Source: a virus. From it: 10,744 nt of DNA. The DNA lies in the UHGV virus genome UHGV-1278612; one strand, 5' to 3'. The notes beneath the pieces are model-generated. The model saw nothing but the letters and a program-made list of their open reading frames with translations. It searched no databases and was not told the origin of the DNA. This document shows, piece after piece, positions 1 to 10,744 of this stretch. A program made the position numbers and the translations under genes. Within the stretch, counting starts at the first letter, position 1, and the number at the start of each line of letters is the position of its first letter.

Positions 1-40
1 GAGCGCCACGGACAGTATGTCGCAGGTTAAAAGTGCAGCC
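1..40 (+). repeat. Left arm of 40-bp exact inverted repeat (reverse complement of 205-244); carries a sense-strand copy of an H segment
   Basis: Window 1-40 is the exact reverse complement of 205-244, checked base by base. Positions 41-44 continue the match with one mismatch. Frame 2 of the plus strand (2-40) reads SATDSMSQVKSAA, the same peptide encoded on the minus strand at 206-244. Confidence 0.9.
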
Positions 41-2169
41 CCGCCAATGGCGCTGCCGATACTCCCGACAATCCCCACCATTGCCTGCTTAAGCAGAATT
101 TCTGTCATCATGGACAGCACGGATCGGGTGAAGCTGCGCCAGTTTTGTTCACTGCCGGTCAGCATCGCCGCCATATTCTGTGCAATACCATCAAAGGTCT
201 GCGTGGCTGCACTTTTAACCTGCGACATACTGTCCGTGGCGCTCTCTTCCCACTCACTCCAGCCTGACTTGAGGCCTGCCATCCAGCTCCCGCGAAGCTG
301 GTCTTCAGCTGCCCAGGTCTTTTTCTGCTCTGACATGACGTTATTCAGCGCCAGCGGATTATCGCCATACTGTTCCTTCAGACGCTGTTCCGTGGCGTCC
401 CGCGCTGCCTGCCGGTCAGTCAGCCCCCGGTTTTTCGCATCAATGGCTGCCCGTTTTGCCCGTTGTTGCTGTGCGAATTTATCCGCCTGCTGCGCCAGCG
501 CATTCAGGTGCTCCTGATACGTGACCTTATCGCCAAGTGCAGCCAGCTGGCGTTTGTACTCCAGCGTCTCGTCTTTATGCGCCAGCAGGGATTTCTCCTG
601 TGCGGACAGCTGGCGACGTTGTGCCGCCTCCTCCAGTACCGCGAACTGACTTTCTGCCTTCCACAAATCCCGGCGCTGCTGGCTGATTTTCTCATTCGCT
701 CCGGCATGCTTCTCCAGTGTCCGGAGTTCTGCCTGAAGCGTCAGCAGGGCAGCATGAGCACTGTCTTCCTGACGATCGCCCGCAGACACCTTCACGCCGG
801 ACTGTTTCGGCTTTTTCAGCGTCGCTTCATAATCCTTTTTCGCCGCCGCCATCAGCGTGTTGTAATCTGCCTGCAGGATTTTCCCGTCTTTCAGTGCCTT
901 GTTCAGTTCTTCCTGACGGGCGGTATATTTCTCCAGCGGCGTCTGCAGCCGTTCGTAAGCCTTCTGCGCCTCTTCGGTATATTTCAGCCGTGACGCTTCG
1001 GTATCGCTCTGCTGCTGCGCATTTTTGTCCTGTTGACTCTGCTGTTCAGCCTTCTTTCGGGCGGCTTCAAGCGCAAGACGGGCCTTTTCACGATCATCCC
1101 AGTAACGCGCCCGCGCTTCATCGTTAACAAAATAATCATCCTTGCGCAGATTCCAGATGTCGTCCGCTTTCTTAAACGCAGCCTCTGCCTTAATCAGCAT
1201 CTCCTGAGCGGTATCAGGACGACCAATATCCAGCACCGCATCCCACATGGATTTGAATGCCCGTGCTGTCCTGTCTGCCCAGGTTTCCAGCGTGCCCATG
1301 TTCTCTTTCAGGCGTCGGGTCTGGTCATCAAACCCTTTCGTTGCGGCCTCGTTCGCCGCCTGCAATGCCCCGGCTTCATCGCCGGAACGCTGCAACTGAG
1401 CAACATACGCAATCTGCTCCGCCGTCACGTTATGGAACTGGCGCGCCATCGCCGTCAGCCCCGACGTCGGGTCAGTGGTCAGCTTCCCGAAGGCTTCAGC
1501 GACCTTGTCCACCTCCACACCGGATGCAGAGGAGAAACGCGCCACACTCTGGCTGATGGACGCAATCTGAGCCTCACCGCTTACCCCCGCCTTAACCAGT
1601 GCACTGAGTGACTCGCTGGTCTGGTTAAACGTCAGCCCTGCAGCCTGCCCGGCTCTGGACAGGACCAGCATACGATCTGCCGTCAGTCCCGCCTGATTAC
1701 CGGAAAGGACCAGCGTTTTGTTGAAATCGGACAGGGTTGAGTTACCCTGATACCAGGCATACGCCAGCGCACCGGTCGCCACCGCCAGCGAGGTGGCCCC
1801 GACCATCGGCAGGGTGATCGCACCGGCAAGCCCCCGGAACATGGGGATCATCCCGCCGAAGGAGTCCTTAACCTGACCACCCTGTTGCAGCAGGATCAGC
1901 CACGGGCTTTGCCCGCCTGCAAGCTGCGTGGCCACGTCGGTGAACTGTGCAGGCAGCATACGCATGGCGGCTTTATACTGCCCGACGGAAATCCCCGCTT
2001 TCTGTGCAGCCAGCGCCTGTCGGCTCAGCGACTGTTCAACGACTGCCGCTGTTTTTTTCGCATCACTTTCCGTACCGGAAAAATGACGCCTGACTCTGGC
2101 CATCTGCTCGTCAAATCTGGCCGCATCCAGACTTAAATCAACGACCAGATCGCCTACCGGTTCAGCCAT
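41..2169 (-). CDS. H: Tail tape measure protein gpH, first ~709 codons; 3' end disrupted at the 40/41 junction
   Basis: ATG at 2169-2167 overlaps the T stop (2164-2162). The translation begins MAEPVGDLVVDLSLDAARFDEQMA, as in lambda H. No complete minus-strand ORF is listed in this frame, so the frame stays open to the window edge. Beyond position 41 it reads into the inverted-repeat copy, not the expected H continuation. Confidence 0.85.
205..244 (-). repeat. Right arm of 40-bp inverted repeat, lying inside the minus-strand H coding sequence
   Basis: Reverse complement of 1-40. The arms are separated by a 164-bp spacer (41-204). Confidence 0.9.
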
Positions 2170-2596
2170 ACCGGACTCCTCCTGCGATCCCTTCTGATAC
2201 TGTCATCAGCATTACGTCATCCTCCGTCATGCCCGCCATATCCGGGGAAGCGGGGATAACTTCATTTCCGTCCGGGTCAAAGCGGACGCCTCCGGTAAGC
2301 CCTGCCGCTTTCTGCATCAGCACATCATCTTCAGGCTCTTCGTCATCCTCACGCCGGTTCAGCAAACTGAAATCCAGCGGATGCATATCCGGATCGCTGA
2401 AAAACAGGCTGAGCACAGTGTACGTCAGCCCGGAAAAGTGCATATCCAGCAGAACATCATGAAAATAATGGGTACTGTAAAAGCGGTGCCAGTCGGCATA
2501 CTCCGTGGATGACATCCCGGCAAGCATGGCGCGCCAGTCAGGTCGCCCCATCTCTCGCGCCAGTTTCAGGGCAAAACTCAGCTCACCGTCGAACAC
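2162..2596 (-). CDS. T: T segment of the tail assembly chaperone, expressed only as the G-T fusion via -1 frameshift
   Basis: ORF 2162-2596 (translation VFDGELSFALKLAREMGRPDW...) sits in the -1 frame relative to G and overlaps the G 3' end. It has no independent ATG or RBS and begins at the slippery heptamer. Confidence 0.85.
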   Translation of the reverse strand: MFDGELSFALKLAREMGRPDWRAMLAGMSSTEYADWHRFYSTHYFHDVLLDMHFSGLTYTVLSLFFSDPDMHPLDFSLLNRREDDEEPEDDVLMQKAAGLTGGVRFDPDGNEVIPASPDMAGMTEDDVMLMTVSEGIAGGVRYG

Positions 2597-3000
2597 TTTC
2601 CCGCAGAAACAGGCTCTGCAGGCCCGGCGTCCTCTGTCTGGTCAGGGGCATCATTCACCACAAACTCATACATTCCGGACAGCCGGTACACCACGTTTTC
2701 AGCATGAGAAATTGCCTCTGTAGGCCAGGTGGTAAGCACTTCCTGCTCAATCTGTTTAACGGCTTCATTCATGGACGGCATCTGCGTCTTCTTCGGATGG
2801 TTATGCCACAGGGACATCGCCACCACAAAAGCGCCGGTTCTGATGGCGTCTTCCACAGTAAACTTCCGGTTGCTGTCTGACTCCGCCTGTTCTGCCTGCC
2901 GTTTCATCAGGGCGAGATGCTCAATACGCTGTAGGGCTGACAGTTCAGAAAGCGTGACGGTCACGCCGTTATGTTCAAATGATTCGGTTTTCAGGAACAT
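2578..3000 (-). CDS. G: Tail assembly chaperone gpG
   Basis: 140-aa ORF MFLKTESFEHNGVTVTLSELSALQRIEHLALMKRQAEQAE...AGKCSTVS, ATG at 3000-2998. Matches lambda gpG in length and sequence; position between V and T. Confidence 0.92.
   Translation of the reverse strand: MFLKTESFEHNGVTVTLSELSALQRIEHLALMKRQAEQAESDSNRKFTVEDAIRTGAFVVAMSLWHNHPKKTQMPSMNEAVKQIEQEVLTTWPTEAISHAENVVYRLSGMYEFVVNDAPDQTEDAGPAEPVSAGKCSTVS
2596..2602 (-). other. Programmed -1 ribosomal frameshift slippery heptamer GGGAAAG (G to G-T)
   Basis: Plus-strand ctttccc at 2596-2602 is GGGAAAG on the coding strand. In the G frame it reads GCG GGA AAG (A G K), 8 codons before the G stop, and the T frame opens there. Confidence 0.85.
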
Positions 3001-3015
3001 CGCTGACTCTCCGGA

Positions 3016-3756
3016 TTAACTGGCGGTGACGGTGATTTCTGCAACCGCAGCAAACTCACCATTACCGGATACGACCGGAATGTTGACCTTGCCTGCAGCA
3101 ACGCCGTTCACGGTGATGGTCATACCACTGACCGACACGGTGGCTTTTGTTTTATCCGCAGACACCGCACGGAAGCTCTTGTCGGTTGCGCCTTCCGGCT
3201 GGAATGCCACGGTCAGCGTGGTGCTCTGCCCTTTCACTACGGAAGCACTGGCTGGCGTTACCGTCATGCCGGTGGCCGCCGTCACCGTGCTGCGATCTTC
3301 TGCCATCGACGGGCGTCCCACATTGGTGACCTTCACCGTGCGGGTAATCACTTCCTTCGCCGTCACCGCCTTACCGATACTGCTGACCCAGCCACGGAAC
3401 ACATCGACCGTGCCGTTCGGGAAGCGGATTTTATAGGCACGGGTATCACCTTCATTAAACCACGCCAGCAGCGCCTGCTGCCCCTGCTCTCCGGGCATCC
3501 ACGCCAGCGTGAAGCTGGTATCTCCGGCTGACTTCTGCCCCTGTCCGGTCGCGGTCCAGTCCGCATCTTCATCATCGAGATAACTGTCGTCATAGGACTC
3601 AGCGGTCAGCTCGCCGGGCGTCAGGTCTTTAACTTTAGCCAGACGCGACCAGTCAACGTCTGAAAGCGGGTTCGCATAAGGGTCACCGTTCCCCTTATAA
3701 ACCCACAGTGTGGTCCCGGCACCTTTCACCGGCATTGTTGGATTTGGTACAGGCAT
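3016..3756 (-). CDS. V: Major tail tube protein gpV
   Basis: ORF 3016-3786 trimmed to the internal ATG at 3756-3754, giving [22 protein letters not shown]... (246 aa). This start lies 7 nt after the U stop and matches the lambda gpV N-terminus. Confidence 0.9.
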
Positions 3757-3763
3757 AGCGTCC

Positions 3764-4159
3764 TCACATTTCATAGGTAATGACATAAGTCAGATCGGCT
3801 GAACTCCACAGGCCCGCATCATCGTCGCGCCGGTAGTCATAGCCACTGGCCACCATACTGGTGATCAAATCTGACAGTGCCGGGATATCGCTCATCACCG
3901 GATAAATCCGGGACTCCATCCACGAATCCAGCTCTGAATCCGGCACCTGAGCAGGCAGGAAAACTTCAATATGCAGCTCCGCCTGCCAGGTATCGCTGTC
4001 CAGCTCTTCGCCCGTGTATTCAGCGCCGGTGAGATAAACGGCAATTGCCGGAAAATCCGCCTCATCAAAAACAGCGGGGCGACCATCAAAAAGCGTCGCC
4101 CCGGTGTCATGCTTCTCCAGTGCATCCAGTACGGCTGCACGGAGTTCAGTATGTTTCAT
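3764..4159 (-). CDS. U: Tail tube terminator protein gpU
   Basis: 131-aa [31 protein letters not shown]... Its ATG at 4159-4157 overlaps the Z stop TGA (4158-4156) in an ATGA arrangement. Confidence 0.92.
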
Positions 4160-4734
4160 CGCTTTATTACCATTCTCAGTTGATGCTGCAGCGCATAGCC
4201 CAGCTCTTTCGGAAGACGTTCACGCCGTATCCGTTCAATATTCTGTTTAAACGCCGTGGTAAGCGGCACCGCCATCGGGATTTTCACCACATCAATGGGG
4301 TAACGGTTTTTCCCGGCCACACGCTGCATGACATGCCACCGCCCATTTTTCAGTTGCTGAATAAACGCGCCGGGAATACGACGGTTACCCACCACAAGCA
4401 CGCTGCCGCCACCTTTCAGGGATGAACGCTGCCCCTTTTTACGACGCCTGCGGCGGGACAGGACAACCCGCGCATTACCCAGCTTGATTACGGGCAAATC
4501 CCCCCGGTTAACTTTGATTCTGGCCTGCGGATTTTTGACCGTGGCCCTTTTCAGCCTGGCCCTTTCCTTTACCAGTTTCCGGCGTACCTTTGTCTCACGG
4601 GCAACCTGTGACGCAGACTGCGATATCACGGATGAAGCAACGCGGTTAATGGCCATTGCGGCGGCACCAGGCACCGCCGTTTTGCTGATACGGCTGAGGT
4701 TTTCAACGGCCTGCTCAAGACCTTTTATGGCCAT
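4156..4734 (-). CDS. Z: Tail completion protein gpZ
   Basis: 192-aa ORF MAIKGLEQAVENLSRISKTAVPGAAAMAINRVASS..., ATG at 4734-4732. Same length as lambda gpZ. Confidence 0.92.
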   Translation of the reverse strand: MAIKGLEQAVENLSRISKTAVPGAAAMAINRVASSVISQSASQVARETKVRRKLVKERARLKRATVKNPQARIKVNRGDLPVIKLGNARVVLSRRRRRKKGQRSSLKGGGSVLVVGNRRIPGAFIQQLKNGRWHVMQRVAGKNRYPIDVVKIPMAVPLTTAFKQNIERIRRERLPKELGYALQHQLRMVIKR

Positions 4735-4745
4735 ACATCCCCCTT

Positions 4746-5099
4746 TCAGCGGCGACGGTTAACGGCAGGCGGTACGCCCCGCCCAAGCCAGAGATGACAG
4801 CTTCCACCATCATCCGGCGAAACCCGGTCTATCCAGAAGTTTTCCTCACCGATGGTCAGCGTGTCTCCACGCCGCAGCTGCCGCACATCATCAGTCCGGA
4901 CAAACAGGGACGGGCTGGAGCCTTCAACGCGCACGCCCTGTCCGGCATAGCTGATATTTTCAGGGTCATCAAAAACACCACGTATTACTGCGCCGGACTG
5001 CTCACCGGATGTCATGGTGGCTGACGTTCCCATGTACCCGCGTATCGTTTCATCGGCGCGGACAATGGCAGCATCGAACAGGTTATCGAAATCAGCCAC
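4746..5099 (-). CDS. FII: Head-tail joining protein gpFII
   Basis: 117-aa ORF MADFDNLFDAAIVRADETIRGYMGTSATMTSGEQ...VPPAVNRRR. The start codon is GTG (reverse complement of 5097-5099), 11 nt after the FI stop. Confidence 0.9.
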   Translation of the reverse strand: MADFDNLFDAAIVRADETIRGYMGTSATMTSGEQSGAVIRGVFDDPENISYAGQGVRVEGSSPSLFVRTDDVRQLRRGDTLTIGEENFWIDRVSPDDGGSCHLWLGRGVPPAVNRRR

Positions 5100-5110
5100 A
5101 GCGCCTCCCG

Positions 5111-5506
5111 TTATTGCATTCTGGCCAGGCCGCGCTCTGTCATTTCGGCTGCCACACCGGCAGAGACACGAAACGCCGTTCCCGGCAGCACAAATGCCAC
5201 AGGTTCATCCCGCGTGGCGTGAAGTGCATCGGTATGCAGCGTCACCAGTGCCACAACCGTGACCAGAACAGCCGTATCAGTCACGGTATCCGTCTGTGCT
5301 GATACCACCTCATTTTCATGTCCGGTCAGCGCATTTTCCGGGCTGACAGACGTGTCCTGACCGGCTCCGTCATCCTTGTCATCAAGCTCCTCTTCCAGCT
5401 CTGCCACACGGAGCGCCAGTTCTTCTTTCGTCCCCGTCAGGCTGACATCACGGTTCAGTTGCTCACCCAGCGACCGGAGACGGGCAATCAGTTCATCTTT
5501 CGTCAT
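5111..5506 (-). CDS. FI: DNA packaging / head completion protein gpFI
   Basis: ORF 5111-5545 trimmed to the ATG at 5506-5504, which is preceded by GGAGGAG (reverse complement of 5511-5517). Product MTKDELIARLRSLGEQLNRDVSLTGTKEEL...AAEMTERGLARMQ, 131 aa. Confidence 0.88.
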   Translation of the reverse strand: MTKDELIARLRSLGEQLNRDVSLTGTKEELALRVAELEEELDDKDDGAGQDTSVSPENALTGHENEVVSAQTDTVTDTAVLVTVVALVTLHTDALHATRDEPVAFVLPGTAFRVSAGVAAEMTERGLARMQ

Positions 5507-5527
5507 GGACTCCTCCACAGAGAGAAA

Positions 5528-5545
5528 ATGGCCCCGAAGGGCCAT
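5528..5545 (-). terminator. Intercistronic stem-loop between E and FI: 7-bp perfect stem with UUCG tetraloop, then a U/C-rich tract (possible attenuator or RNA-stability element)
   Basis: Coding strand reads TAA-tc-AUGGCCC-UUCG-GGGCCAU-uuucucucu-guggaggagucc-AUG. The perfect palindrome starts 2 nt after the E stop; the SD and FI start follow. Confidence 0.4.
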
Positions 5546-5547
5546 GA

Positions 5548-6573
5548 TTACGCCAGTTGAACGGACACGAACTCATCAGGATCAGCCAGCAGCATCAGCG
5601 GTGCTGACTGAATCATGGTGAACTCACGCGCCGGATCGCCGCTGGTCACCCAGTTTTTCGGGTAGCGGGCAGAAGCGTTAATACCTTCGCGCTGTGCGTC
5701 CGCATCCTGAATGCAGCCATAGGTGCGCAGACCGCGAGCCTGAGTGTTCCCCAGCACCATCGTGTTGTCCGGCAGAAAGTTCTTTTTGACGCCGTTTTCC
5801 ACGTACTGTCCGGAATACACGACGATGGCCACATCGCCATACATCCCCTTATAGGACACCGCTTTGCCCAGGTCTTTCACCGCTGTCTCCAGCTCGGAAT
5901 GAGAGCCGCGACGGGTATCCAGCTTCTCCCTGACGGCTTTGAAGGAACGGAACAGCGCCCAGCCTTTCGGATCAAAAACGATAATATTCACCACACCGCT
6001 GGCGTTCAGCGCGTAGGCTTCGATATCGTCGGTCGGGTCATACGTGGACTTGTCGCGCTTGCTCCACTCCGTGCTGCCGGACTGCGTGATGTTATTCGCT
6101 TCACTGCGACCCATATCCACCTCAACCGGATCGAAGGCTTCACCGGTCATGGTGTATTTGCCCTTAAGCACGGCAGAAACGGCCTGCATCTCTTCGACCT
6201 GAGCAATGGCCAGCTCTTCGTCTCGCATGTTCTGCATGATGATGCGACGGCGGCGGTAAGCCGGGTCCGCCAGATTCTTCGGATCTTCATCCGGCAGGCG
6301 ACGCAGGGTCATCTGCGGATTCACCTCATGCTTGGGCTTGACATATCCCGGTGTAAATTCAGAGGTGGAGCCGCCACGGGAGCGGATAACCTCACCGGAA
6401 ACAATCGGCGAAACGTACAGCGCCATGTTTACCAGTCCCGGAATTTGTGAGAGATAGACTTTCTCCGTGGTGAAGGGATAGCTCTCACGGAAAAAGAGAC
6501 GCAGAAACAGCGGATCAAACTTAAATTTCTGCTCATTTGCCGCCAGCAGTTGGGCGGTTGTGTACATCGACAT
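5548..6573 (-). CDS. E: Major capsid protein gpE
   Basis: 341-aa ORF MSMYTTAQLLAANEQKFKFDPLFLRLFFRESYPFTTEKVYLSQIPGLVNMALYVSP...DPDEFVSVQLA. Matches lambda gpE in length and sequence; ATG at 6573-6571. Confidence 0.95.
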   Translation of the reverse strand: MSMYTTAQLLAANEQKFKFDPLFLRLFFRESYPFTTEKVYLSQIPGLVNMALYVSPIVSGEVIRSRGGSTSEFTPGYVKPKHEVNPQMTLRRLPDEDPKNLADPAYRRRRIIMQNMRDEELAIAQVEEMQAVSAVLKGKYTMTGEAFDPVEVDMGRSEANNITQSGSTEWSKRDKSTYDPTDDIEAYALNASGVVNIIVFDPKGWALFRSFKAVREKLDTRRGSHSELETAVKDLGKAVSYKGMYGDVAIVVYSGQYVENGVKKNFLPDNTMVLGNTQARGLRTYGCIQDADAQREGINASARYPKNWVTSGDPAREFTMIQSAPLMLLADPDEFVSVQLA

Positions 6574-6583
6574 AAAAAATCCC

Positions 6584-6607
6584 GTAAAAAAAGCCGCACA
6601 TGCGGCC
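6584..6607 (-). terminator. Intercistronic hairpin plus U7 tract between D and E (terminator-like; possible partial attenuator or processing/stability element)
   Basis: Coding strand reads ...AAAG-GCCGC-AUGU-GCGGC-UUUUUUU-acgggauuuuuu-AUG(E). A GC-rich 5-6 bp stem is followed directly by seven U (plus-strand A-run 6586-6592). Confidence 0.4.
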
Positions 6608-6627
6608 TTTAGTGATGAAGGGTCAGG

Positions 6628-6960
6628 TTAAACGATGCTGATTGCCGTTCCGGCAAACGCGGTCCGTTTTTTCGTCTCGTCGCTGGCAGCCTCCGGCCAG
6701 AGCACATCCTCATAACGGAACGTGCCGGACTTGTAGAACGTCAGCGTGTTGCTGGTCTGGTCAGCAGCAACCGCAAGAATGCCAACGGCAGCACCGTCGG
6801 TGGTGCCATCCCACGCAACCAGCTTACGGGTGGAGGTGTCCAGCATCAGCGGGGTCATTGCAGGCGCTTTCGCACTCAATCCGCCGGGCGCGGTTGCGGT
6901 ATGAGCCGGGTCACTGTTGCCCAGCGGCTGGTAATGGGTAAAGGTTTCTTTGCTCGTCAT
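6628..6960 (-). CDS. D: Head decoration protein gpD
   Basis: ORF 6628-6966 trimmed to the ATG at 6960-6958, which is preceded by GGGA. Product [43 protein letters not shown]...FAGTAISIV, 110 aa. Confidence 0.93.
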
Positions 6961-6969
6961 AAACATCCC

Positions 6970-7575
6970 TTACACTGGTGTGTTCAGCAAATCGTTAACG
7001 GCATCAGATGCCGGGTTACCTGCAGCCAGCGGTGCCGGTGCCCCCTGCATCAGACGATCCAGCGCAGTGTCACTGCGCGCCTGTGCACTCTGTGGTGCTG
7101 CGGCCAGAATGCGGCGGGCCGTTTCCACGGTCATACCGGGGGTTTCGGCCAGCACGCGGGCCTGTTCTTCGCGTCCGTGAGCCTCCTCACAGTTGAGGAT
7201 CCCCATAATGCGGCTGTTTTCTGCCGCAACCGCAGCGGTGATCTGCGCGTTCACGTCCGGCTGCGCCGCGCTGGCGTTTTCGCCCTCCGTCGCTGGCACC
7301 ACGTCAGTAACGTCAGCCTGCGAAGCAGTGGCTGAAACAGTTGTTGATTGAGTCTCTTTGGTCATTCGCCCTCCTGAGAGACGGGATTTACGTGCATCCA
7401 GTGCATCACGCATAACGGTGATCGCATCGGTGCTGTTGACAAGTTCATCAGCCAGTCCGGCATCAATGGCCTCCTGACCGCTGTACACTGCAGCCTCGGT
7501 ATCCAGCACAGCCTGCACGGACAGGCCGATATATGCCGACACCTTCTGCGCAAACATCTGGCGGGTTGCATCCAT
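6970..7575 (-). CDS. Nu3: Scaffolding protein gpNu3, nested in frame within the 3' part of C
   Basis: In-frame ATG at 7575-7573 with GGGAGA about 14 nt upstream on the coding strand. Product MDATRQMFAQKVSAYIGLSVQ..., sharing the C stop. Confidence 0.75.
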   Translation of the reverse strand: MDATRQMFAQKVSAYIGLSVQAVLDTEAAVYSGQEAIDAGLADELVNSTDAITVMRDALDARKSRLSGGRMTKETQSTTVSATASQADVTDVVPATEGENASAAQPDVNAQITAAVAAENSRIMGILNCEEAHGREEQARVLAETPGMTVETARRILAAAPQSAQARSDTALDRLMQGAPAPLAAGNPASDAVNDLLNTPV

Positions 7576-8289
7576 CCGGGACTGCAGTGTCTCCCGGACG
7601 TCATCCGGAAGATGGCTGTAGGGGTTGCCATCCACCTTATGGCTGCCGCTGTAAATCAGCGTGATTTCCACGCCCTGTTTCTCCAGCGCAGCACCGTAAT
7701 TACTGTGAGCCATCATGACGCCGATGGAGCCTGTCCGGGCGGTCTGCGTGACCAGACGCCGGGAGGCGGCGCTGGCAAGCAGCTGCCCTGCACTGCAGTT
7801 CATGTCATTGGCCAGCGCCCATACCGGCTTTATGTCACGCACACGGGCGATGATGTCAGCGCAGTCAAATGCCCCTGCCACCATCCCGCCTGGCGTATCC
7901 ATATCGAGCAGAATGCCGTCCACCATCGGGTCGCTGGCAGCCTGTTGCAGACGGGCGATAATGCCGTTGTAACCGGTCATCCCCGAATACGGCTGCAGCG
8001 CTCGCGTCCGGCTGACCAGCGTACCGGACACCGGCAGCACGGCGATGCCGTTCATGACCTGATAATTGCGGGCCTGTCGTGGTCCGTCATCATCACCGGA
8101 TAACGCCAGCGCCGCGGGTGCCTCTCCGGCAGTCAGGCTGTCGCCGGACACCGCATCCGTCAGGCGACTGATCCCAAGCTGGCCTGCAAGCGCACAAAAG
8201 AAAACCCGCGCATAGGCGGGTTCAAGCATCAGCGGCTCATTAAAAGCCATGCTGGCAATATGCGGGAGATTACGCAGCTCTGCTGTCAC
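6970..8289 (-). CDS. C: Head maturation protease / scaffold gpC (ClpP/SppA-like serine protease)
   Basis: ORF 6970-8424 trimmed to the GTG at 8289-8287, giving VTAELRNLPHIASMAFNEPLMLEPAYARVFF...AVNDLLNTPV (439 codons). The start lies inside the 3' end of B, a 20-nt overlap. Confidence 0.88.
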   Translation of the reverse strand: MTAELRNLPHIASMAFNEPLMLEPAYARVFFCALAGQLGISRLTDAVSGDSLTAGEAPAALALSGDDDGPRQARNYQVMNGIAVLPVSGTLVSRTRALQPYSGMTGYNGIIARLQQAASDPMVDGILLDMDTPGGMVAGAFDCADIIARVRDIKPVWALANDMNCSAGQLLASAASRRLVTQTARTGSIGVMMAHSNYGAALEKQGVEITLIYSGSHKVDGNPYSHLPDDVRETLQSRMDATRQMFAQKVSAYIGLSVQAVLDTEAAVYSGQEAIDAGLADELVNSTDAITVMRDALDARKSRLSGGRMTKETQSTTVSATASQADVTDVVPATEGENASAAQPDVNAQITAAVAAENSRIMGILNCEEAHGREEQARVLAETPGMTVETARRILAAAPQSAQARSDTALDRLMQGAPAPLAAGNPASDAVNDLLNTPV

Positions 8290-9034
8290 TCTTCTCCTCC
8301 TCTGTTGATTGTCGCAGCCCGGATTCAAATGCCGCAGCCGCCCAGGCGGGCGGTTTAAGACCGGCTGCACGGCGCTCCATCGTTTCACGGACCTGCTGGG
8401 CAAAAATTTCCTGATAGTCGTCACCGCGTTTTGCGCACTCTTTCTCGTAGGTACTCAGTCCGGCTTCTATCAGCATCACCGCTTCCTGTACTTCTTTCAG
8501 ACCATCGATGGCCATACGACCGGAGCCTATCCAGTCGCAGTTCCCCCAGGCACTGCGGGCTTCCTGAAAACTGAAGCGCGCTTTTGAAGGTAACGTCACC
8601 ACGCGGCGGGCGATGGCCTCTTCCAGCCAGCACAGAAACATCTGGCTCGCCTGACGGGATGCGACGAATTTTCGCCGCCCCATAAAGTACGCCCACGACT
8701 CGTTCGCACTGGCCCGTGCCGTGGAGTAGCTCATCTGGGCGTAATTCCGGGAAAGCTGCTCATACGAGACACCCAGCCCGGCAGCGATATACCGCAGCAG
8801 TGACTGCTCAAACACGGAGTAGCCGTTATCCGTGTCCTGAGCCGTCTGCAGGTTCAGTGAGTCCCCCGGCATCAGGTGCGGCACTTTTGCGCCTCCCAGA
8901 CGGACCGGTGCTGCGGCGTAATACGCGGCAATTTCACCAATCCAGCCGGTCAGCTTGTCCCGCTGCTCCTGACTGTTCGCGCCCAGAATAAAATCCATCG
9001 CTGACTGCGTATCCAGCTCACTCTCAATGGTGGC
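8270..9034 (-). pseudogene. B: Portal protein gpB, 3' fragment (about codons 280-533); no native start, fused to antisense A sequence
   Basis: ORF 8270-9058 reads MFRLRGMLA followed by TIESELDTQSAMDFILGANSQEQRDKLTGWIGEIAAYYAAAPVRLGG...EEEKSDSRAA. The first 9 residues are antisense of the A fragment; the rest is the B C-terminus. The B N-terminal half is absent from this strand. Confidence 0.85.
8915..9034 (-). repeat. 120-bp inverted duplicate of 10498-10617 (B codons ~280-319)
   Basis: Reverse complement of 8915-9034 equals plus-strand 10498-10617; both ends checked base by base. Both copies encode TIESELDTQSAMDFILGANSQEQRDKLTGWIGEIAAYYA. Confidence 0.88.
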
Positions 9035-9664
<630 letters not shown>

Positions 9665-10135
9665 AAACGCCCACCATTCCCACCCTTCTGGGGCCGGACG
9701 GCATGACATCGCTGCGCGAATATGCCGGTTATCACGGCGGTGGCAGCGGATTTGGAGGGCAGTTGCGGTCGTGGAACCCACCGGGTGAAAGTGTGGATGC
9801 AGCCCTGTTGCCCAACTTTACCCGTGGCAATGCCCGCGCAGACGATCTGGTACGCAATAACGGCTATGCCGCCAACGCCATCCAGCTGCATCAGGATCAT
9901 ATCGTCGGGTCTTTTTTCCGGCTCAGTCATCGCCCAAGCTGGCGCTATCTGGGCATCGGGGAGGAAGAAGCCCGTGCCTTTTCCCGCGAGGTTGAAGCGG
10001 CATGGAAAGAGTTTGCCGAGGATGACTGCTGCTGCATTGACGTTGAGCGAAAACGCACGTTTACCATGATGATTCGGGAAGGTGTGGCCATGCACGCCTT
10101 TAACGGTGAACTGTTCGTTCAGGCCACCTGGGATA

Positions 10136-10262
10136 CCAGTCCGTCGCGGCTTTTCCGGACACAGTTCCGGATGGTCAGCCCGAAGCGCATCAGCAACCCG
10201 AACAATACCGGTGACAGCCGGAACTGCCGTGCCGGTGTGCAGATTAATGACAGCGGTGCGGC
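10136..10262 (+). repeat. Direct repeat copy 1 (source copy within B, codons ~159-201)
   Basis: 10136-10262 is identical to 10618-10744 at a 482-bp offset, checked at both ends. Confidence 0.88.
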
Positions 10263-10497
10263 GCTGGGATATTACGTCAGCGAGGACGGGTATCCTGGCT
10301 GGATGCCGCAGAAATGGACATGGATACCCCGTGAATTACCCGGCGGGCGCGCCTCGTTCATTCACGTTTTTGAACCCGTGGAGGACGGGCAGACCCGCGG
10401 TGCAAATGTGTTTTACAGCGTGATGGAGCAGATGAAGATGCTCGACACGCTGCAGAACACGCAGCTGCAGAGCGCCATTGTGAAGGCAATGTATGCC

Positions 10498-10617
10498 GCC
10501 ACCATTGAGAGTGAGCTGGATACGCAGTCAGCGATGGATTTTATTCTGGGCGCGAACAGTCAGGAGCAGCGGGACAAGCTGACCGGCTGGATTGGTGAAA
10601 TTGCCGCGTATTACGCC
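10498..10617 (+). repeat. 120-bp segment of B duplicated in inverted orientation at 8915-9034
   Basis: See feature 8915-9034. The plus-strand copy is flanked by correct B sequence on its 5' side only. Confidence 0.88.
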
Positions 10618-10744
10618 CCAGTCCGTCGCGGCTTTTCCGGACACAGTTCCGGATGGTCAGCCCGAAGCGCATCAGCAACCCGAACAATACCGGTGACAGC
10701 CGGAACTGCCGTGCCGGTGTGCAGATTAATGACAGCGGTGCGGC
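10618..10744 (+). repeat. Direct repeat copy 2, at least 127 bp, running off the window end
   Basis: ccagtccgtcgcggcttttccggacacag...gacagcggtgcggc repeats 10136-10262 exactly and begins right after tattacgcc (B codon 319). Confidence 0.88.

Follow-up and report, generated by a model that had tools for sequence, protein, structure and literature searches.

The gap between the major capsid gene E and gene FI of a lambda-type late operon contained a short GC-rich hairpin, and strong comparative evidence marks this hairpin as an RNA-level element under purifying selection, placed directly 3' of the capsid gene. It is tentatively proposed, at somewhat less than an even chance, that the hairpin protects the capsid message from 3'-to-5' decay and would be at most a weak terminator.

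The window (the whole 10,744-nt stretch of DNA that was analysed) carried a lambda-type late operon. Positions 36..9034 were the reverse complement of lambda 3673..12675, from the portal gene B to the tape-measure gene H, at ~97% identity, and the genes are therefore read from the minus strand. The gene names E and FI, given in an earlier note made from the letters alone, were borne out by matches to lambda E (5548..6573, minus; stop UAA at 5548..5550 in both the sequence and the ORF list) and lambda FI (5111..5506, minus). The ends of the window, 1-244 and 8911-10744, were rearranged. Positions 9029-10744 matched lambda-type A/W/B (about 2014-3619) in the orientation opposite to the remaining window; inverted repeats were found at 8911-9034 / 10498-10621 and at 1-44 / 201-244, and 10136-10262 was an exact direct repeat of 10618-10744. 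These ends are suggestive of a fold-back chimera or of an artefact of assembly.

On the minus strand, the E stop was followed by UC (5547..5546), the hairpin (5545..5528), the tail UUUCUCUCU (5527..5519), then GUGGAGGAGUCC, and the FI AUG (5506..5504). The perfect 7-bp stem that had been reported 2 nt past the E stop was recovered, with a 5' arm AUGGCCC (5545..5539), a UUCG loop (5538..5535) and a 3' arm GGGCCAU (5534..5528), all seven pairs being Watson-Crick. The tail was pyrimidine-rich with a weak, interrupted U-tract and, as described earlier, led to the FI translation start region (5505..5518) with its Shine-Dalgarno sequence GGAGGAG (5516..5510). The 18-nt hairpin was identical to lambda 7166..7183, and the difference between the window and lambda in the hairpin region was confined to the tail (UUUCUCUCU vs UGUUUCUCU).

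RNA folding, proposed in the earlier note as a check, returned the 7-bp hairpin in both the minimum free energy (MFE) and the centroid structures of the 71-nt E-FI region. Folded alone the hairpin had an energy of -12.3 kcal/mol, and in a 401-nt context its inner six pairs formed with probabilities of 0.85-0.98. The stability of the 71-nt region itself was ordinary (z = -0.51; 55 of 200 shuffles folded as well). A perfect 7-bp stem with a 4-nt loop was expected 0.74 times per dinucleotide-shuffled 10.7-kb window, at least one occurring in 51% of shuffles, while ~0.01 such hairpins were expected within one given 41-nt gap; when the 41-nt gap was shuffled, seven of 100 versions yielded a hairpin at least as good. 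A simple terminator scan picked up the E-FI hairpin, and terminator-like matches were mildly enriched in the window (16 vs 9.8 +/- 3.2 expected). Rfam covariance models gave no match at 5500-5560 even at E <= 1, and their three hits elsewhere in the window were weak, chance miRNA/snoRNA matches. By itself the hairpin is thus within chance; its position and conservation lift it above chance.

For the comparative analysis, 80 loci were gathered around the capsid genes of each of three types, lambda, N15 (E 86-89% identical) and PhiR12_1 (61%), and the sequence behind each E stop was read. With the window's E protein as query, every locus found was at least 98% identical, and the informative diversity came from the N15 and PhiR12_1 E queries. 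The hairpin region occurred in 34 distinct forms in the lambda and N15 groups. Among these 34 variants, nine of the ten positions of the core GGCCC/GGGCC were invariant, and the tenth had a single C-to-U change that retained a G-U pair. In the same 34 lineages just 3.3% of the 123 four-fold degenerate sites in E were invariant, as were 8.8% of third codon positions and 86% of second codon positions. The constraint on the near-invariant stem is therefore far stronger than that on neutral sequence, and it exceeds even that on the second codon positions of E.

The conservation and compensatory changes that the earlier note had asked about were also present at the level of pairing. Cells forming pairs made up 95.4%, against 33-56% when the partner column was slid. 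The outer pairs covaried: the outermost pair was G-C in 14 variants, G-U in 11 and A-U in eight, and the second-outermost was U-A in 23, C-G in one and unpaired in 10. Both flanks were variable, and the distance from stop to hairpin ranged from 2 to 13 nt in the lambda and N15 groups. The weight that had been placed on the UUCG tetraloop was overstated. UUCG was found in 12 of the 34 variants, next to UGCG (6), UGUC (5), UGUU (5), AUUC (2) and UCCG, UUCU, UUUC and UGAU (1 each); a UNCG-type loop was present in 19. The UUCG loop was rejected as the selected feature.

Outside these two groups, the position was kept and the sequence was not. In the PhiR12_1/1W clade (E 61% identical) the same place was occupied by a different hairpin, GCGGGGGC-GAAAU-GCCCCCGU followed by GUCUUUUUUC, in which the sole stem changes kept wobble pairing. 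Seven of eight distant E-family phages (25-35% identity; named hosts Stenotrophomonas, Vibrio, Aeromonas, Pseudomonas, Salmonella, Rhodobacter and Rhizobium) carried a GC hairpin of 6-10 bp, unrelated in sequence, in the post-capsid gap, and the eighth had no gap after its capsid gene. For 10 independent representatives, only 0-7 of 100 gap shuffles matched the best hairpin. In HK97 the sequence GGGGGCGGG-GAAA-CCCGCCC, with a GNRA loop, lay directly after the capsid gene (5192..5213, annotated 'terminator, putative'), and in P22 the corresponding stem-loop (6102..6119) was GGGGC-UGCG-GCCCC-UUUCUUUAUGGAG, with a UNCG loop. Both share the post-capsid position of the E-FI hairpin and are unrelated to it in sequence, and the capsid protein genes of these two phages were absent among the E relatives found. 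In SPP1 a predicted terminator starts at the capsid gene stop (PMC6316719). The window, lambda, N15, HK97 and P22 had a design in common: a GC stem, a stable tetraloop, a U/C tail and then a Shine-Dalgarno sequence. Post-capsid hairpins thus recur independently in unrelated lineages.

Gene E was bracketed by two hairpins, as the D-E gap contained another, AAAGGCCGC-AUGU-GCGGCUUU plus a U-run (6610..6586, minus), 12 nt upstream of the E AUG (6573). Across 53 lambda/N15-type variants it followed the pattern AAAGGCCGC-N4-GCGGC then U7-8, in which the stem and the U7-8 were invariant and the loop was hypervariable. Such a pattern is characteristic of canonical intrinsic terminators, and the hairpin carries a terminator annotation in N15 and mEp237; the simple scan for terminators overlooked it. 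Between Nu1 and H of lambda, the sole gaps longer than 15 nt follow D and E, which encode the two most abundant proteins of the lambda head, and each of these gaps held a hairpin.

GC hairpins with U-runs were also found in the lambda I-J, J-lom and lom-orf401 gaps (L257 15445-15504, 18904-18964 and 19586-19649). The I-J gap, with a UGCG loop, UUUU and GGAG, had the same layout as the E-FI gap. Since I is not abundant and its gap nevertheless has a hairpin, the link between hairpins and high expression is imperfect. Annotated putative terminators flanked the major tail subunit gene of HK97 (L255; 3193-3220 and 3944-3963), and a 15-nt gap without a hairpin lay behind the lambda major tail gene V. 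The D-E, I-J and lom-orf401 elements resembled the E-FI hairpin in their GC stem, short loop and pyrimidine tail; they differed in having at least four uninterrupted U directly after the stem, whereas the E-FI tail is interrupted and not conserved.

The E-FI hairpin was already known, being unchanged in the lambda reference and flagged in public phage annotations. The N15 stem_loop at 7053..7073 is homologous, shares the GGCCC/GGGCC core and is annotated 'putative rho-indep. transcription terminator'. The P22 record describes its own stem-loop as 'similar in location to stem-loops in phage HK97 and phage lambda'. C(UUCG)G hairpins located between phage genes have been recognised as a class ever since Tuerk et al. 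1988, according to the summary in PMC8948821. As that summary gives the class, with complementary arms in the form (X)2-8 CUUCGG (Y)2-8 and a phage intergenic position, the E-FI hairpin belongs to it (AUGGCC-CUUCGG-GGCCAU). The loops of relatives included UGCG, UCCG, UGUC, UGUU and AUUC, and the class thus describes the window copy rather than the conserved element. Reading the hairpin as a barrier to decay refines what annotators had already noticed and is not a discovery.

Two roles had been put forward for the hairpin in the earlier note, partial termination or attenuation and 3' stabilisation of the E message, each as a possible help in setting the excess of E over FI. The proposed link to the E:FI ratio found no support in the sequences. 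A selected RNA element stood up to the comparison, and of the two roles stabilisation would fit the comparative pattern better than termination, the U-run of a terminator not being conserved. The contrast is clearest beside the D-E hairpin, which retains an invariant U7-8 where the E-FI tail does not. Because the hairpin was conserved and the U-tract was not, the selected property is taken to be the RNA structure rather than termination. Two of the features expected of a decay barrier were seen, in a stable stem-loop directly 3' of E that formed in the 401-nt fold of a longer mRNA, and in the keeping of structure rather than sequence at this site across lineages.

In the proposed mechanism, Q-modified RNA polymerase would transcribe through the hairpin, which would then fold in the finished polycistronic late mRNA right after the E cistron. 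Once the message had been cut further downstream, PNPase, RNase II and RNase R would degrade it from the new 3' end as far as the GC-rich stem and stall there, and the segment encoding D and E would hence outlive the segment for FI and the tail genes. Termination at the hairpin would be minor and would mainly affect polymerase unmodified by Q. We infer decay protection as the selected function, with a raised output of E relative to the downstream genes.

A demonstrated parallel is found in the gal operon of E. coli, in which a hairpin with an 8-bp stem and a 4-nt loop blocks exoribonucleases and gives a stable galE mRNA, and does so without a U-tract (PMC11925234). Like the E-FI hairpin, it is a short GC hairpin in an operon transcript just beyond a cistron needed in larger amounts. 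The gal 3' ends and exonuclease block were measured, whereas the E-FI hairpin is known here from sequence alone; the gal hairpin lies ~120 nt into the next gene, and the E-FI hairpin in an intergenic gap. Within gene C of the window, ~50 nt past the B stop, a strong terminator-like hairpin was observed (8202-8223, minus; GAACCCGC-CUAUGC-GCGGGUUU, then UCUUUUG), and it recalls the gal hairpin in that both lie inside the coding sequence of the next gene. Other intercistronic hairpins that block decay include the REP stabilisers in malEFG, the puf operon decay terminator and papBA. With its 7 bp, the E-FI stem falls among the shortest reported to stall exonucleases. The relative yields of the lambda late proteins were reportedly attributed by Sampson and co-workers in 1988 mainly to translation initiation. 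Searches of the open literature turned up neither a paper giving 3' ends or half-lives of lambda late transcripts, or transcript release at this site, nor a remark in print on the E-FI hairpin.

The hairpin might instead be a weak intrinsic (Rho-independent) terminator or attenuator that stops a fraction of polymerases after E, either lowering lytic transcription of FI and the tail genes or serving as a fail-safe against transcription that is not Q-antiterminated, for example in a lysogen. This is possible but doubtful. The stem is of the kind found in intrinsic terminators (GC-rich, ~5-14 bp, with a loop of 3-8 nt), having 7 bp, five of them G-C, and a 4-nt loop before a U/C-rich tail. The scan listed it, although such matches are common by chance, and curators annotated the homologous N15 stem-loop and that of HK97 as putative terminators. 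A hairpin plus U-run was found in every lambda late gap of at least 41 nt that folds simply, and the D-E companion has a textbook terminator shape. Against this reading, the E-FI hairpin lacks an uninterrupted, conserved U-tract. Among close relatives the tail varied between UUUCUCUCU in the window and UGUUUCUCU, UGUUUUUCU and UGUCUCUCU; the tract was interrupted in the window, weaker in lambda (UGUUUCUCU) and N15 types (CUUUCUGG or AUUUCUGG), and a U-run was absent from all seven distant E-family relatives with a hairpin. A minority of relatives did have good U-runs behind the hairpin (UUUUUUAU, UUUUAUUU, UUUCUUUUAU and GUCUUUUUUC). Late transcription is antiterminated by Q, which lets RNA polymerase pass terminators throughout the late operon. 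The stem is also only 2 nt past a heavily used stop, where a terminating ribosome would cover its 5' arm. Finally, a hairpin of canonical terminator shape immediately precedes E, whose product is needed most, and termination during the lytic cycle is therefore unlikely as the purpose of these elements.

That the hairpin is a functionless chance palindrome is scarcely credible. The shuffling expectation for perfect stems and the ordinary stability of the 71-nt region would allow it; the invariance of the core while ~97% of neutral sites varied, and the independent recurrence of unrelated hairpins at the same position in many lineages, speak against it, and the conservation evidence effectively refutes it. 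A site for RNase III was rejected because the stem is too short: such a site needs ~20 bp of double-stranded RNA, and neither the 71-nt nor the 401-nt fold contained a helix longer than the 7-bp stem. A role as a translational insulator or coupling device between E termination and FI initiation 41 nt downstream is unlikely. The hairpin would then block re-initiation or scanning, or would clamp a longer helix, in which the FI ribosome-binding site would stay masked until the helix was opened by a terminating ribosome. In N15-type loci (L082, L083, L087-L166) the post-stop sequence ACUUC or AUUCUG can pair with the FI-like Shine-Dalgarno sequence GGAGU or CGGAGU, enclosing the hairpin, and such an outer helix could couple translation of the capsid and FI-like genes. 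These helices were short (3-6 bp), and no outer helix hiding the Shine-Dalgarno sequence was found in the window or lambda. The stem, 2 nt past the stop, would fall within the footprint of the terminating ribosome, yet the stop-to-hairpin distance ranged from 2 to 21 nt across relatives, and post-capsid hairpins recurred regardless of which gene followed. The window's Shine-Dalgarno sequence does sit in a small local hairpin, the weak GUGGA-GGAG-UCCAU (5518..5505, minus), which holds its GGAG in the loop of the centroid structure. This mini-hairpin pairs the first two bases of the FI AUG; its variants in close relatives were mostly in the loop or wobble-preserving, and L078 breaks one pair. 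A fuller form of the coupling idea, which we regard as quite improbable, makes the hairpin the clamp of a ribosome-operated switch: the terminating E ribosome would melt the clamp together with the N15-type pairing that hides the Shine-Dalgarno sequence, so that capsid translation would meter synthesis of the FI-type chaperone. If true, the hairpin would be a conserved translational-coupling device, neither terminator nor stabiliser.

Almost no probability is given to the 5'-arm AUG (5545..5543) being the true start of FI, which would extend the protein by 13 residues (MALRGHFLSVEES) and make the hairpin coding. This AUG shares the frame of the FI AUG with no intervening stop, and ORF finders therefore call a 144-aa FI (5111..5545); the GenBank record of phage 1W starts FI at an upstream in-frame codon, and A-to-G variants retain a possible GUG start. 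With the E stop 2 nt away, however, the AUG has no upstream Shine-Dalgarno sequence, and a strong one precedes the annotated FI AUG. Among loci that kept the hairpin, L144, L131, L142, L122, L153, L156, L159, L166 and L135 had the start out of frame (35 or 40 nt) or lacked it, a 1-nt indel broke the frame in PhiR5_1, and the amino-acid changes were non-conservative (HFLS / HCFS / HCLS). The extended frame was rejected, as it was broken or had no start in many relatives with the hairpin, and the 5'-arm AUG is likely a source of mis-annotated FI starts. Translational bypass of the kind known from T4 gene 60, where a stop is likewise combined with a tetraloop, or an E-FI fusion, was also rejected on inspection: E and FI do not share a frame, the first base of the E stop lying 44 nt ahead of the FI AUG, and GCG, the last codon of E, has no matching codon behind the hairpin.

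If the E-FI hairpin is indeed a barrier to mRNA decay, a tiny hairpin would help the phage make the hundreds of capsid subunits needed per particle from one long transcript whose remaining genes are required at much lower levels. The trick would then recur after the capsid genes of many unrelated phages, and it would be useful to phage engineering and to operon design.
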